Shown: positions 1,470 to 7,430, counted from the first letter of the stretch. The stretch is 8,509 nt of DNA from a virus (IMGVR_UViG_648276647_000011), one strand, 5' to 3'. The notes: a model not told the origin generated them from the letters alone. Program-made: numbers and translations.

Positions 1470-1569
1470 GCGTTGGTGGTTTATTGCGTCCATCACTGGG
1501 TGGCAAAACTTACTGATCTGAACGTATTGCTACATGTGGGGGAAGGAGGCCAAGTACTGACAGCAGAGC

Positions 1570-1600
1570 AAAAAAAAGAAGCTCGCTAAAGCCAGCGAGC
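1570..1600 (-). terminator. intrinsic terminator oriented for minus-strand transcription
   Basis: Stem GCTCGCT (1581-1587), loop AAAGCC, stem AGCGAGC (1594-1600). On the + strand it is preceded by an A-run (1570-1578), which on the minus strand is a U-tract immediately 3' of the hairpin. There is no U-tract after the hairpin on the + strand. Confidence 0.45.
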
Positions 1601-1660
1601 CAACCAGTCAAGGATGTGCATTTAATGCACCTAAAGTCAGCAATAAGAAGTAATAGGCAG
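1570..1660 (-). ncRNA. candidate small RNA (~90 nt) on the minus strand in the alpA-icd intergenic region
   Basis: Minus-strand promoter-like elements: -35 TTGATT (1694..1689), 17-bp spacer, -10 CATAAT (1671..1666). An internal palindromic hairpin GTGCAT-TTA-ATGCAC lies at 1616-1630 and the terminator at 1570-1600. There is no minus-strand ORF here. Purely sequence-based prediction. Confidence 0.3.
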
Positions 1661-2016
1661 AAATGATTATGGCTTTTTTACTCTTTAAAATCAATCACTC
1701 AGCGCAAGTGAGCAAAAATAATGTGCAATATTGCTTGACTCGCTTTTTTGTCATGGCGTATCGTTTGCCCGCACCTCATAAAGCGGGTGCCGGGTTTAGC
1801 AGCCTGAACAATCAAGCGGGTAGCCGCTATATTTCCGTAATGCGGTTTTTTTGTGCCCGTAATTCCACCCTACCCCGTATTATGGCGGGGCGTAATGGGG
1901 GAGCCTTTGCGCTCGCTGGTTCCTTGATTGCCAGTCTGCTAACCCTGTTACGTCCCGCCACCATGTTTAGCAGCGTGCTGGCGAGACTCCGTAAACTTAA
2001 TCAAGGAGCCGCCAAA

Positions 2017-2190
2017 ATGGCTATATCAACACGCCCTGATTTTATCTGGCGCTTTATGCAGTGCCACGGTAAAAATATTCGCCTTCATACCGTTACCGCT
2101 GCCAGTGAGCGCGAAGCGCGCGCCATGCTTCCGGCATCCCGTCTGGTCTTTGTTGCCCGTATCCGTGTCCGGGAGGCGTGCCATGTTTAA
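2017..2190 (+). CDS. small protein, 57 aa, Icd-like (resembles the host cell-division-inhibitor Icd-like family common in P4-like prophages)
   Basis: ATG 2017 preceded by AGGAG (2004-2008). Sequence MAISTRPDFIWRFMQCHGKNIRLHTVTAASEREARAMLPASRLVFVARIRVREACHV; the ...ASEREAR...L.F.AR.RV motif is recalled from Icd-like proteins. The 5' part of the 175-aa track ORF (1663-2016) is treated as non-coding. Confidence 0.45.
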   Translation: MAISTRPDFIWRFMQCHGKNIRLHTVTAASEREARAMLPASRLVFVARIRVREACHV

Positions 2191-3140: not shown

Positions 3141-3180
3141 AATAAAAACCCCACTGCAAAAGGTGCAGTGGGGTGGAGTT
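3141..3180. terminator. bidirectional-looking intrinsic terminator; stronger in minus orientation
   Basis: 10-bp GC-rich stem CCCCACTGCA (3149-3158) / TGCAGTGGGG (3164-3173) with loop AAAGG. On the minus strand it is followed directly by TTTTTATT (reverse complement of 3141-3148). On the + strand the T-run (3176-3179) is separated from the stem and interrupted. Confidence 0.55.
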
Positions 3181-3186
3181 TTATAT

Positions 3187-5856
3187 ATGAAATCTGACAT
3201 CAGAAAAGAGATTATTAACCGTCTTATCCGTGATTACAACTTCAAAGAAGAAAATAACTACCTCCGGTATGGTGTTTGTCCGCAATGTGGAAAGAAAGAG
3301 TTGTTTACCAGCCTTGAAAGGCCGTACATCGTACACTGTGGGCGCGAAAATAAATGCGGTACAGACCTGCTGACCAAAGAACTTTACCCGGATGTGTTTT
3401 CATCATGGTCAGATCGTTATATCAGCACGAAAGACGAGCCATATGCAGCGGCGGCAGCTTATCTTCAGGAAGCGCGCAATATTGCTGTGGGGCCACTGAA
3501 GGGCGCATTTACTCAGGAGCGATACCAGGACAAGGAAAACGGCGAACAGGCCGCTACTGTGCGTTTTACGCTGGCTGACGGCGTGTGGTGGGAGCGCATC
3601 ATAGACCGGCCGGAACGTTTCGCGCGTAAGGCGAATTTTTCCGGCAGCTACAAGGGGTTGTGGTGGGCTTATCCGGGAGCTGATTTAAGCAAGGCCAACG
3701 AAATCTGGATTTGTGAGGGCATCTTTGATGCCATCAGCCTTAACCAGAATGGCATTGCAGCCGTTTCTGTCATGTCTGCCGTGAATTATCCTGATAAGGC
3801 GCTGGAAGAACTGGCAAAGCTGTGCGGAGATAATCCCCGTCCGGTTATTGTGTGGGCGCTGGATAACGGGCGTGCGGGTGAGCGTTACGCGAAAAAACAT
3901 TCAGAACGCAGCGCCGAAGATGGCTGGAGAACGGCGGCGGCGTTACCGGGTAAAAACAGCAATAAACGCGACTGGAATGATTTACACGTCGCCGGAAAGC
4001 TGCGTGGCCATGATGTGAAAAGATACCGTCATTACGGTGATTTATTGCTGGCGAAATCTCCGAGAGATAAGGCGCTGATAATATTTTCCTTTCGTGAGCG
4101 GAAGGAATTTCATTTTACTTTTGATAACCGTGTTTTCTGGTTCAAACTGGACATTGAGCGCTATATGAAGGCTGTTGAGCGTGCCAAGAATGAGCGAAAT
4201 GTTGATGAGGATGAAGCGCGCAAAATTGCACTTAAGGAATCTGGTGCAGTAAAAGAAATCGCAAACTGTAACCCAGCGCCGCTTTATTACATTCGAAATA
4301 ATGACACGGATGAAGCATGGTATTACTTCCGTGTTACGTTCCCGGATGGTGCTACGGTGAAAAACACCTTTACATCAGGACAATTAACATCCTCATCTGA
4401 ATTTAAAAAACGCCTGTTACACGTGGCAAAAGGCGGTATTTATACTGGAACGACTACGCAGCTTGACGCATTAATAAAAAATGACCTTCCCGCAATAAAA
4501 GAGGTTATTGGTCAGGATTTTATCGGATACAACAAGGCGATTGGGGCATGGCTGTTTAATGATATTGCTGTTTACAAGGGAAAAACTTATGAAATCAATG
4601 ACGAGGATTATTTTGAAATTGATGGCATAAACGCAAAACCATTAAGCGAAAAACCCACATTACAGATTAACTACAAAAAACCGGATGAGTTTACAGAGTC
4701 TTGGGTGGAAGATCTCTGGCTGGCTTTTGGTGAAAAGGGAATTATTACCCTGGCTTTCTGGTTGGGCTCCCTGTTCAGCGAACAAATCCGAGATAAAGAA
4801 GAATCCTTCCCCTTCCTTGAAGTCACCGGGGAGCCCGGAACGGGTAAATCAACATTGATTGATTTTTGCTGGCGGTTGTGCGGTCGTGACAACTATGAAG
4901 GCGTTGATCCAACCAAAGGATCAGAGGCGGGCTGGAAGCGTACCTTTGGACAGGTCGCCGGATTACCTGTTGTTCTGATTGAAGCGGACCGGGGAGACAA
5001 TGCGCAAAAAAGAGGTGCGTTTGACTTCGATAACCTGAAAAGTCTCTATAACGGCGGTGGTATCGGCGTTCGTGGTGTTAAGGCCAACAATAACAACACC
5101 TATGACCCGGATTTTAAGGGCGCTATCGTGATTGCGCAGAATGCGCGGGTAAACGCCTCTCCGGCAATTATTGAGCGCCTGATACGTATATACACCGATA
5201 AAAAACGCCATTCACCTGATACCCGCCTGGCGGCGAGACGGCTGGAACTTTACCCCGTCGAGAAGGTATCTGGGTTTATTCACCGAGCGGTAAGTCAGGA
5301 ACGGGCGATTATGCAAACGTTCCTAGAAGTATCTCCAGCTGAAACGGAACGCCTTTGCGGATGCGAAAATATTCGCCATCCCCGCATCGCTAAAAATCAC
5401 GCACAACTTATCGCGCTGGTCAGAGCGCTGAAATGCGTTATTGATATCCCGGATGAATGGCTTGATGCCACATGTCTGGAACTGGAACAAATGGCAACAG
5501 CGCAGGTTAAAGCGGCGGCGGCTGATTTACCGGAAGTGATGGAGTTCTGGGAGGCGTTCGACTTCCTGGACGGCATAACAAAATACGGTGTAAACCACTA
5601 CGGCAAGGGATGCCGTGAGGGGATTGCTATCAGTATTCCGCAACTGGCACAGGCTGCCGCCATTCACCGCGTGGAGATCCGAACTGACCGCGAAATGATT
5701 GAGTTGCTCGGAGCCGGACGTTCCCGACCTTTGACAGGCCGCAAAACCATTCGTAGTGAGGTGTCCAGACAGGCAAACGCCGGAAGAGGGGTCGCCGAGG
5801 CCAGAGAGCCGGAAGTACTGAAATGCCGGATATTCAGTTACAAGGAGGGGCGCTAA
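3187..5856 (+). CDS. phage/plasmid primase-helicase of the P4 alpha type: N-terminal zinc ribbon, TOPRIM primase, P-loop NTPase (helicase)
   Basis: Long ORF. Cys cluster CPQCG...HCGRENKCG (nt 3277-3360). TOPRIM-like ICEGIFDA (nt 3709-3732) and LDNGRAGE. Walker A GEPGTGKST (nt 4828-4854). ATG 3187 with SD GGTGGAG (3172-3178) is preferred over the track GTG at 3163, which lies inside the terminator stem. Confidence 0.88.
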   Translation: MKSDIRKEIINRLIRDYNFKEENNYLRYGVCPQCGKKELFTSLERPYIVHCGRENKCGTDLLTKELYPDVFSSWSDRYISTKDEPYAAAAAYLQEARNIAVGPLKGAFTQERYQDKENGEQAATVRFTLADGVWWERIIDRPERFARKANFSGSYKGLWWAYPGADLSKANEIWICEGIFDAISLNQNGIAAVSVMSAVNYPDKALEELAKLCGDNPRPVIVWALDNGRAGERYAKKHSERSAEDGWRTAAALPGKNSNKRDWNDLHVAGKLRGHDVKRYRHYGDLLLAKSPRDKALIIFSFRERKEFHFTFDNRVFWFKLDIERYMKAVERAKNERNVDEDEARKIALKESGAVKEIANCNPAPLYYIRNNDTDEAWYYFRVTFPDGATVKNTFTSGQLTSSSEFKKRLLHVAKGGIYTGTTTQLDALIKNDLPAIKEVIGQDFIGYNKAIGAWLFNDIAVYKGKTYEINDEDYFEIDGINAKPLSEKPTLQINYKKPDEFTESWVEDLWLAFGEKGIITLAFWLGSLFSEQIRDKEESFPFLEVTGEPGTGKSTLIDFCWRLCGRDNYEGVDPTKGSEAGWKRTFGQVAGLPVVLIEADRGDNAQKRGAFDFDNLKSLYNGGGIGVRGVKANNNNTYDPDFKGAIVIAQNARVNASPAIIERLIRIYTDKKRHSPDTRLAARRLELYPVEKVSGFIHRAVSQERAIMQTFLEVSPAETERLCGCENIRHPRIAKNHAQLIALVRALKCVIDIPDEWLDATCLELEQMATAQVKAAAADLPEVMEFWEAFDFLDGITKYGVNHYGKGCREGIAISIPQLAQAAAIHRVEIRTDREMIELLGAGRSRPLTGRKTIRSEVSRQANAGRGVAEAREPEVLKCRIFSYKEGR

Positions 5857-5858
5857 AC

Positions 5859-6862
5859 ATGCCGATCAGAAAGATGCATGATGGGCGGTGGCTGCTCGAT
5901 ATCAGGCCATGCGGACGTAAAGGGAAGCGCATCAGAAGAATATTTGACAAAAAATCGATAGCTACAGCAACTGAACGGTACATCATAGCGAACGCCGAAA
6001 AGCGCGAGTTTATACAGGGCTATCGTGACCGGAGAACGCTTAGCGATTTACTGGAATTGTGGTGGGTCTATCACGGTCAGCACAGGCGAAAGGCAAACAC
6101 GGATAAACAGCAGCTTGGCAAAATTATTAATGAGCTTGGAGCTGACATGTTTGCGGTGGAACTCGACAAATTAAAAATCATTGCATGGCGATCGCAGAAA
6201 ATTGCAGAAGGATTAAAGCCGTCCTCAGCAAACAGATACATGAACAGATTATCGGGGATGTTTACAGCCCTGAAAAAGATCGGTTTGTGGGATGCAGAGC
6301 ATCCGGTTCGTGGTATTCCTGTTCTTTATGTAAAGCAGCGGGAAATGGCCTTTTTATCAAAAAACGAGGTCACATTGTTGCTTGACGGGCTGAATGGAGA
6401 TCAACGAAGGGTTGCGCTCTTGTGTCTTTGTACCGGAGCCCGCTGGAGTGAGGCCAGCAGATTGTATGGAGAGCAAATAGTTCATAACAGAATAACGTTT
6501 CTGGAAACCAAAAACGGTAGAAAAAGAACGGTGCCTGTGTCGCAGGAAATATGCGATGCCGTAAAAACAAAAGAAACCGGGCGACTGTTTGATGTGAAGT
6601 ACAGAGAGTTTTGCCGGGCATTAAAAAAATAAAACCCGATTTACCGAGGGGGCAGGCTGCGCATGTATTGCGGCATACATTCGCCAGTCACTTTGTGATG
6701 AACGGTGGCAACATTCTTGCGCTACAAAAAATCCTTGGGCATGCGACAATTCAGCAGACTATGGCATACGCACATTTTGCACCGGATTATCTGGCAGATG
6801 CCATGAGATTTAACCCGGTAGCCAACATAGTGATCACCGAAGAAAAAGAGCCAGCAGAGTAA
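5859..6862 (+). pseudogene. int: tyrosine integrase, P2 Int-like, interrupted by a single-base frameshift at an A7 run (6623-6629); may be a pseudogene, a sequencing error or a recoding site
   Basis: Two consecutive ORFs (frame 0 5859-6632; frame 2 6611-6862) that together align without gaps to recalled P2 integrase (e.g. KPSSANRYMNRLSGMFTAL, CTGARWSEASRL, IKPDLPRGQAAHVLRHTFASHF, QTMAYAHFAPDY). Box II HxxR and the presumed catalytic Tyr (nt 6767-6769) are only in the second frame. ATG 5859 lies 2 nt after the primase stop, with AGGAGGGG at 5843-5850. Confidence 0.85.
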
Positions 6863-7110: not shown

Positions 7111-7430
7111 GGGGGGGGATGCGCAAAGCGGTTACAACGGTTACAAATTTAAAATTGCTTATTTTTGTATTATATATCAATATATTATAACTGGTCCGAT
7201 GAGTTACAATAGCGGTTACAACGCGGTTACATGTAACCGTTTTGTTAGGTTACAGGCGGTTACAGGTTAAGTTTTTAATTGATTGATAATAAAGTGCTTT
7301 TTGAAACCTGTAACCGTTGTAACCGCAGTGTAACCGCAAAGCGGTTACAAACAATATCCATTAAAATCATGTTTTTAAGTGGTGTTTTTGACTGTTGTAA
7401 CCGTTGTAACCGCTTTGCGCACCCCCCACC
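7111..7430. repeat. iteron array (heptamer GGTTACA/TGTAACC, 13 exact copies plus 1 variant) bounded by 36-bp inverted repeats; putative replication origin
   Basis: Inverted repeats 7111-7146 and 7395-7430 are 34/36 identical as reverse complements. GGTTACA at 7130, 7139, 7214, 7225, 7248, 7258, 7343 and AGTTACA at 7202. TGTAACC at 7232, 7309, 7318, 7329, 7396, 7405. Perfect palindrome GGTTACATGTAACC at 7225-7238. Hairpin TGTAACCGC-AAA-GCGGTTACA at 7329-7349. AT-rich blocks at 7147-7200, 7265-7308 and 7350-7390. Confidence 0.6.

Follow-up and report, generated by a model that had tools for sequence, protein, structure and literature searches.

A probable immunity locus between alpA and the icd-like gene

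The DNA between alpA and the icd-like gene (positions 1470-2016 of the window, the whole 8,509-nt stretch of DNA that was analyzed) is very likely the immunity-control region of a P4-like or Gram-negative PICI satellite, with its main content on the plus strand. Most of the gap is taken up by a well-known switch, the RNA-based immunity system of P4/P1-type elements, which is encoded on the plus strand and places an immunity RNA of the P4 CI / P1 C4 type between the AlpA regulator and the replication operon. An earlier note on this DNA had described the gap as long and untranslated, had found no convincing ORF in it, and had proposed an antisense small RNA on the minus strand, analogous to the CI RNA of P4. 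The expected kind of RNA is indeed present between the regulator and the replication operon, but on the other strand and in another place (plus strand, 1878-1965, about 250 bp to the right of minus-strand 1572-1660). The note had missed the plus-strand RNA genes that fill 1735-2016, and its statement on ORFs is contradicted by a 175-aa frame (1663-2190), 354 nt of which lie in the gap; this frame stays open throughout the 17 relatives and is annotated in relatives by RefSeq as an Icd-like protein.

The window represents a P4-like or Gram-negative PICI-type satellite of E. coli. All the genes listed lie on the plus strand: a 350-aa ORF of unknown kind (1-1053) is followed by a gene for an AlpA-family regulator of the alpA/vis type (1149-1469; Pfam Phage_AlpA PF05930, 30.5 bits against a cutoff of 21), which forms the left border of the stretch, then by the stretch itself and the icd-like gene. 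On the 3' side of the icd-like gene are small ORFs, a large primase gene (3163-5856, plus strand), and then a split integrase and an iteron-rich region. Near-identical DNA is carried by 108 of 5,426 complete E. coli genomes, chromosomal in every case, and is also present in IMG/VR and metagenome contigs. Islands with 99% identity are carried, for example, by E. coli 600468 (NZ_CP025849, 563043-563744) and by the ST131 strain 2019_APHA. The segment 1470-1735 was found in no other context among the 5,426 E. coli genomes and had no phage match. A scan of genome contigs with the 5' stem of C4 returned a single locus, and a metagenome scan returned nine further homologous loci, the stems of which held no new variation.

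Seventeen distinct relatives were collected from E. coli genomes (L001-L009), from IMG/VR (L010-L018), and as L019, and 13 distinct versions of 1755-2030 were aligned for the analysis of covariation. The upstream contexts of the relatives form three groups. Members of group A have alpA immediately upstream, like the window. In group B, where homology begins at about 1526, the locus is preceded by another gene, an HTH gene of 222 nt, and by a long gap, and in group C, where homology begins at about 1660, by a P2-family capsid gene.

Immunity RNAs on the plus strand

Two Rfam families score above their curated thresholds in the gap, C4 antisense RNA and isrK, and both matches are on the plus strand. 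The isrK match (RF01394) is a leader at 1771-1852, with a marginal score of 52.1 bits against a gathering threshold of 50. In addition to a score at or above gathering, a promoter directly upstream and an intrinsic terminator at the end were found, as is characteristic of an IsrK/seqA RNA. The promoter of the immunity transcript (1735-1764, plus strand) is PLE-like and reads TTGACT-18-TATCGT; only 1 of 37 positions is variable in this region, and the promoter ends 7 nt 5' of the start of the IsrK model. The leader contains a hairpin, the target sites a1 (1796-1802) and b1 (1809-1816), and a terminator hairpin (1822-1847) with U7, whose GCCGC..GCGG and U7 are invariant in the relatives. The c4-a1b1 motif (RF03163) falls below its threshold at 1758-1810 (29.5 vs. 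46.7), although the a1 and b1 sites are backed by covariation with the C4 loops. An isrK score barely over its threshold and a c4-a1b1 model under its threshold are caveats on the immunity reading.

The C4/CI-type antisense immunity RNA occupies 1878-1965 on the plus strand and matches RF01695 with 74.7 bits against a gathering threshold of 45, over model positions 1-87 of 87. According to the model alignment, it folds into a long closing stem around two hairpins, with the b' loop (1920-1930) and the a' segment (1936-1942) single-stranded, and it carries a tRNA-like GCCACCA on its 3' side (1955-1961). The internal helices are paired in 97% of cells (39 pairs, 13 relatives), and two pairs in hairpin 1 are double-changed. 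Reading the sequence directly upstream of C4 revealed no separate promoter with normal spacing. Downstream of C4 lie the target sites a2 (1967-1973) and b2 (1999-2008), which together span 1967-2008 on the plus strand and correspond to inverted repeats I4 and I5. Site b2 overlies the Shine-Dalgarno (SD) sequence of icd, AAGGAG at 2003-2008, 8 nt before the ATG at 2017, and this start region with its AAGGAG is invariant among the relatives. The ATG opens a short icd/kil-like ORF of 57 aa (2017-2190, plus strand), the first gene of the replication operon, which matches the NCBIfam model NF033153 (phage_ICD_like, 53 bits against a cutoff of 25). At the DNA level, window 1790-1975 is about 80% identical to the annotated c4 region of P1/P7, in which c4, icd, and ant are annotated.

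The principal feature is thus of a kind already known, as C4/CI-IsrK immunity has been reported before in such islands. IsrK and C4 are equivalent to seqA and CI, respectively, in P4-like prophages (PMC3632133, PMC4825925), and the C4 and isrK profiles detect relatives of CI and seqA in Gram-negative PICIs (PMC10111431).

Covariation of the C4 loops with their targets

The loops of C4 and the two sets of target sites vary together. Among the 13 distinct relatives, 98.5% of cells are paired for a1/b1 with a'/b' and 99.5% for a'/b' with a2/b2; 8 of 15 and 8 of 17 pairs, respectively, are double-changed. Two controls were used, in which the partner was slid by 1-3 columns or the data were shuffled 500 times. 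Pairing in the slid controls was 26-54% overall (33-54% for a'/b' against a2/b2), and none of the 500 shuffles reached the observed covariation scores. The co-varying patches are b1 (1809-1816), the b' loop (1920-1930), and b2 (1999-2008), and likewise a1, a', and a2. They exist as at least seven b alleles and two a alleles on otherwise almost identical backbones, e.g., CTTGATTG in the window and CTCTTACG in L001. Such covariation between loop and target is what marks an antisense immunity RNA whose targets are specific to the allele. The heteroimmunity of P1 and P7 reportedly also involves allele-specific C4 targets.

Two other potential pairings were considered. The segment 1592-1614, in which I7 and I8 match C4 1911-1930, was rejected as an extra C4 target. 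Its arms are not collinear as a single duplex, 700 nt should contain matches this long by chance alone, and the variable b' loop contrasts with an invariant 1605-1614. The pairing of 1771-1785 with 2050-2064 (inverted repeat I2) showed no covariation, and its 3' arm is invariant coding sequence.

A long open reading frame through the locus

A long eta-like ORF of 175 aa (1663-2190, plus strand) is in frame with the icd/kil-like ORF and spans the promoter, the leader, and the C4 gene. No stop codon occurs in its frame in the 17 relatives, compared with 7 and 10 in the remaining two frames, the relatives behind this openness being closely related (85-99% identity). The frame survives the hypervariable patches, several of which contain out-of-frame TAA or TAG, and in L006 a -1/+1 indel pair leaves it open. 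Upstream of the ATG at 2017, 120 codons are open here, compared with 152 in P4 and 11 in P7.

In nearly all relatives, PGAP calls an "Icd-like protein" of 173-175 aa, and if this RefSeq reading were taken at face value, the product of 1663-2190 would simply be an Icd-like protein of 175 aa, with incidental matches to the RNA families. We find this very hard to credit. The Icd-like model covers amino acids 127-169 only, which belong to the short ORF from the ATG at 2017, and the 175-aa Icd-like protein of RefSeq is therefore no simple protein gene. The N-terminal 118 codons overlap the full-length C4 and IsrK matches, the variable patches co-vary as RNA pairing partners and not as protein, the internal ATG has kept its ribosome-binding site without change, and the icd gene of P7 has no such extension.

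The arrangement mirrors the nesting of eta and kil in P4, but as a putative analogy and not as homology. The ORF had no protein similarity to P4 Eta (BLASTP E = 3.8) and no Pfam domain, and the 193-nt gap between the end of alpA (1469) and its start (1663) leaves it without coupling to alpA. Because both the protein similarity to Eta and the coupling to alpA are lacking, an eta-like role can be suggested only by analogy.

Proposed mechanism of the switch

The family matches, the promoter geometry, the three-way covariation of loops and targets, the position of b2 over the icd ribosome-binding site, and the open frame directly support a switch of the following kind. The promoter at 1735-1764 would be constitutive and would start the leader at about 1771. 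Transcripts that end at the strong leader terminator would carry the target sites a1 and b1 and would constitute the IsrK/seqA-like RNA (1771-1852), and read-through transcripts would include the C4/CI RNA (1878-1965), which is probably excised by RNase P as in P1/P4, given the GCCACCA on its 3' side. The single-stranded a' and b' would then pair with a1/b1 upstream and with a2/b2 downstream. Judging from the biology of P1 and P4, pairing at b2 over the icd ribosome-binding site should block icd translation, and polarity or premature termination may then keep the downstream replication (primase) genes off, which would be the immune state. On transcripts derived from alpA, ribosomes translating the long ORF across the target sites might override the block, by analogy with P4, in which CI-dependent termination is averted when eta is translated from upstream transcripts (PMC10111431, citing Forti et al. 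1999). For C4 processing, termination, translational override, and any role of minus-strand transcription, we infer by analogy what may occur in this element.

A minus-oriented terminator upstream of the long ORF

The segment 1470-1662 is the only part of the stretch without an explanation under the immunity reading, which leaves a minus-oriented terminator and a conserved block at 1602-1630 unaccounted for. The terminator and its conserved neighborhood are a genuine, modestly interesting loose end. On the left, 1470-1571 is a variable spacer 3' of alpA, assigned to neither strand, which includes a purine tract at 1539-1550 and in which 21 of 46 positions over 1526-1571 are variable among the 17 relatives. 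Next to the spacer lies an intrinsic terminator that reads in the minus orientation only (1572-1601), just as the earlier note had claimed, with a stem-loop of 9 pairs at 1601-1580, a U-tract at 1579-1572, and the tail TCTTTTTTTT. A stringent scan of both strands of the window (8 or more pairs, 5 or more G-C pairs, and 7 or more T in 9) detected no other terminator, and none was found in 100 dinucleotide shuffles. Among 17 sequences of groups A and B, 0 of 16 stem positions and 3 of 6 loop positions vary, and the tract is 6-9 long. Minus-strand transcription of some kind most likely ends at 1601-1572. Two small ORFs in this area, 1473-1589 (plus strand) and 1510-1611 (minus strand, a hydrophobic 33 aa), were rejected, as the A/T-tract of 6-9 among the relatives breaks both frames.

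Immediately to the right of the terminator, the conserved block CAACCAGTCAAGGAT and the hairpin GTGCATTTAATGCAC (together 1602-1630, assigned to neither strand) have only 2 variable positions of 29, compared with 21 of 46 on the left (1526-1571) and 9 of 28 on the right (1631-1658). The block can be read either as the body or seed (UCCUU) of a candidate minus-strand RNA or, on the plus strand, as an SD sequence (AAGGA) with ATG/GTG at 1625. In L016, unrelated sequence stands in place of the hairpin and the AUCCUU segment. In group C, the hairpin is an unrelated one, CGGCCCG..CGGGCCG, with AAAAGAAAA before it, and is likewise a terminator for the minus strand only; it is located 17 nt after the capsid stop codon and shows stem-preserving variation among the members. 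Both nonhomologous versions, that of the window type and that of group C, would have UCCUU at a distance of 9-12 nt on the 5' side of the hairpin. A second terminator, which reads on both strands, lies at 3148-3174 within an operon that is otherwise entirely on the plus strand; its conservation extends to L002 and L016.

One explanation for this segment, which we consider possible but less likely than not, is a discrete minus-strand sRNA of about 87 nt that would be transcribed from a promoter at 1694-1666, start near 1658, and end at the terminator (1601-1572). It concerns 1572-1694 only and is compatible with the plus-strand immunity explanation. On read-through transcripts, the RNA would be complementary to the junction of alpA and eta and would face the eta-like ribosome-binding site with its 5' end, forming a second RNA layer that damps late read-through; alternatively, it might act in trans through the conserved single-stranded AUCCUUGACUGGUUGG segment. 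The predicted RNA (1572-1659, minus strand, about 87-91 nt) has a fold of -22 kcal/mol (z = -2.1). Consistent with such an RNA are this fold, the strong and unique terminator with its invariant stems and variable loop, the unrelated terminator in the same orientation and place behind a different upstream gene in group C, the shared position of UCCUU, and the sharp fall in variability exactly at the terminator. The candidate sigma-70 promoter (1666-1694, minus strand) bears on both sides. Its hexamers are present as the earlier note had described them (TTGATT at 1694-1689, a 17-nt spacer, and CATAAT at 1671-1666), and both are invariant in the 17 relatives, with 9 of 17 spacer positions different in group C and the spacing unchanged. 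However, a 9/12 match is at chance level (15 such matches found vs. 14.4 expected from shuffles), the -10 falls on the first codons of the long ORF as the reverse complement of codons 2-3 (ATT ATG), and the -35 is part of an invariant block of 20 nt, and because of these overlaps the conservation of the hexamers has other explanations. The second hairpin proposed for the RNA (1616-1630) does fold, but it is replaced together with AUCCUU in L016, is absent in group C, and has a variable position, A1625G, at which pairing is kept on the plus strand (T·G) and broken on the minus strand. A comparison of the hairpins among relatives, suggested as a check, bore out the conservation of the stems and of 1602-1630, but it yielded no compensatory changes for the candidate RNA; the terminator stems never vary. 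The C/U-rich stretch opposite 1539-1550, which the earlier note had assigned to the RNA, is not part of the roughly 90-nt RNA because it lies 22-33 nt beyond the terminator U-tract in the direction of minus-strand transcription. The candidate RNA matched no Rfam family, the one sub-threshold match (suhB/mmgR, E = 0.21) having been rejected as a generic hairpin-plus-terminator shape, and literature searches found neither a transcript nor the sequence. A discrete functional minus-strand sRNA is best viewed as a candidate.

The terminator may instead be an insulator or a relic, with the zone from alpA to c4 serving as a variable cargo zone that holds no functional sRNA, which seems to us rather unlikely. 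An insulator would stop antisense transcription from the right (e.g., from 1754-1727 or 2067-2039) before it enters alpA and int, in keeping with the further conserved minus promoter-like sites to the right and with the both-strand terminator at 3148-3174; yet a pure insulator leaves the strong conservation of 1602-1630 unexplained. A relic would be the terminator of a lost minus-strand cargo gene. In more distant islands (L021-L025), small minus-strand genes (YlcI/YnfO, SWIM, and hypotheticals) do lie between alpA and the c4 module, and in L024 they are followed at about 476-503 by a minus-oriented hairpin with T7, which was recognized by eye and is absent from the terminator scans. A relic should decay, however, whereas 17 sequences show no change in the stems and group C maintains its own version with stem-preserving variation. 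It is also conceivable, and in our judgment improbable, that the block 1602-1662 acts on the plus strand, where the SD sequence AAGGA (1610-1614) and the ATG/GTG at 1625 would serve a leader ORF of 13 codons with a stop codon that overlaps the start of the eta-like ORF (ATGA, 1663-1666), so that ribosomes would be loaded in read-through transcripts in replacement of the alpA-eta coupling of P4. The only change in hairpin 2, A1625G, turns ATG into GTG, which is still a start codon and keeps the T·G pair of the plus strand; 1625-1666 is free of indels in groups A and B, the ATGA overlap is present, and in 4 of 5 group C variants AAGGA is followed 8 nt on by ATG. Against this, 13 codons are open by chance about half the time, the SD spacing of 10 nt is long, ACG replaces ATG in L018, the whole arrangement is missing from L016, the group C ORF is in another frame and lacks the ATGA coupling, and the terminator is left unexplained. 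A 25-codon uORF in group C was itself rejected, as it is not conserved and has ACG in L018. The sRNA, the insulator or relic, and the plus-strand leader are not exclusive of the immunity explanation. More broadly, the satellites might carry a second small RNA opposite the alpA-to-immunity junction, in at least two nonhomologous versions that share the promoter, UCCUU, and the terminator; antisense to the eta-like ribosome-loading site, it would gate late read-through and form a two-RNA, two-strand switch on top of C4/CI, a proposal that we regard as doubtful.

Implications for annotation and cross-immunity

The value of the plus-strand immunity explanation is mainly corrective, as a seemingly empty stretch, or a 175-aa "Icd-like protein" in RefSeq, turns out to be a compact RNA switch of the kind known from P1 (C4) and P4 (CI). 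The sequence itself reveals the specificity alleles of the switch, which is of help for predicting cross-immunity among E. coli satellites and for repairing their annotation. A minus-strand RNA, if true, would be a new regulatory layer on a classical system, of moderate interest to specialists in phage satellites and sRNAs.

Comparison with known systems

If the minus-strand RNA is real, it would resemble the cis-antisense RNAs of plasmids and phages (RNAI/CopA, P22 sar, lambda OOP) in being short, ended by a terminator, and opposite a regulatory junction with overlap of a ribosome-binding-site region. In contrast to them, the candidate lacks a conserved kissing loop and covariation, and its body is partly replaceable.

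The leader corresponds to the IsrK sRNA of Salmonella Gifsy-1 by its match to the Rfam model, which is marginal (52.1 vs. 50). In Gifsy-1, the short RNA results from partial termination, and transcripts that read through form a longer mRNA and give rise to a processed RNA downstream (PMC4825925), an organization that the present locus would share. The genes downstream differ, being icd and the primase gene here and orf45-anrP in Gifsy-1.

With the immI region of P1/P7, the locus has in common the DNA identity over 1790-1975 given above, the order of a1/b1, c4, a2/b2 over the icd ribosome-binding site, and icd, and the allele-specific complementarity of loops and targets. Unlike in P1/P7, icd is followed here by small ORFs and the primase gene and not by ant, no C1 operator is annotated, and a strong terminator is located between b1 and c4. 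The long ORF spans c4 here, in contrast to the few open codons upstream of icd in P7, and the promoter region is nonhomologous.

The immunity region of P4 (PLE, seqA, CI RNA, seqB, kil/eta, vis) differs in other respects. The DNA of the window is much closer to P1/P7 than to P4, and the eta-like ORF has no protein similarity to Eta. This ORF lies 193 nt from alpA, whereas in P4 the ORF start (2313) overlaps ORF88 (ends 2265), and P4 has no minus-oriented terminator at that place. In its organization, however, the locus agrees with P4. With the same tools, P4 yields both Rfam families in an unchanged order; its promoter, too, has an 18-nt spacer and stops 7 nt short of the isrK/seqA match, and its leader terminator likewise has U7. 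In both elements, the promoter, seqA, and CI lie within a long ORF (eta, 214 codons in P4) that shares its frame with a short downstream ORF (PMC10111431), with an AlpA/Vis gene upstream and a primase gene downstream.

Immunity specificity and its annotation

At least seven b-type and two a-type specificity alleles were distinguished in the loop and target segments of the C4 antisense immunity RNA, by aligning 13 distinct versions of window 1755-2030. The b-type alleles differ in patches at 1809-1816, 1920-1930 and 1999-2008, and the a-type alleles at 1796-1802, 1936-1942 and 1967-1973. Outside these patches, the backbones carrying different alleles are 90-99% identical. The presence of so many alleles on such similar backbones suggests that immunity specificity diversifies rapidly or is recombined among E. 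coli satellites. In the related islands L021 (1113-1200 and 1594-1681), L022 (1126-1213 and 1588-1676) and L023 (1111-1198 and 1588-1676), two C4 genes were observed in tandem, each followed by an icd-like ORF, and these pairs may constitute a double immunity module.

In the RefSeq records of the relatives, PGAP labels the entire 173-175-codon frame "host cell division inhibitor Icd-like protein" (e.g., L001 2638-3159 and L003 2695-3216). None of these records carries a PGAP-annotated ncRNA feature, despite the location of the C4 and IsrK-like RNAs within the frame; this represents a systematic gap in annotation.

Sequences between alpA and the C4 module

The purine tract GGGGGAAGGAGG at 1539-1550 differs between relatives, yet consists only of purines in all of them (GAGGGGGAGAGG and GAGGAAAGGAGG, among others); no start codon follows it at the distance of a ribosome-binding site. 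A putative leader ORF of 13 codons was found at 1625-1666, starting with ATG or GTG, with the Shine-Dalgarno sequence AAGGA 10 nt upstream, and its TGA stop overlaps the ATG of the long ORF at 1663 (ATGA). This frame is open across the relatives of group A (alpA directly upstream) and group B (a different HTH gene upstream), with the sole exception of L016. Further downstream, a perfect 10-bp palindrome, GCAATATTGC (1724-1733), abuts the -35 element of the plus-strand promoter, and just upstream of it is an 8-nt hypervariable patch (1706-1713; variants include GTGAGCAA, GCGCGCCA, CATCGCCA and TCGCACAA). Together they look like an operator with a variable neighbor.

In more distant islands, the interval from alpA to the c4 module contains insertions of small minus-strand genes (L021, 1-776; L023, 187-765; L024, 595-1041; L025, 859-1038), including members of the YlcI/YnfO family, a SWIM zinc finger gene and hypothetical genes. 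Operator-like palindromes (ACTGGAATCCAGT) were also observed in the divergent promoter region of L024 (approximately 1060-1140).

Other features of the island

A strong hairpin at 3148-3174 (11 pairs, including seven G-C) overlaps the annotated GTG start of the primase gene, together with its Shine-Dalgarno region, and is kept in the relatives L002 and L016. It is a predicted terminator in both orientations, the better one being on the minus strand, and is a second candidate able to act on that strand in the all-plus operon. A frameshift has probably interrupted the tyrosine integrase frame, which now consists of two ORFs that overlap (5823-6632 and 6611-6862), and its location (5823-6862) differs from that in the relatives, where the integrase lies upstream of alpA. 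The AT-rich, ORF-poor stretch at 7122-7413 contains multiple iteron-like copies of GCGGTTACA(A) / TGTAACCGC, both direct and inverted, and probably serves as the island's replication origin.

A 15-nt inverted repeat (1771-1785 and 2050-2064, 87% complementary) has one arm at the 5' end of the IsrK-like leader and the other within the icd coding sequence. This putative pairing is reminiscent of the long-range helices reported in the isrK mRNA isoform.
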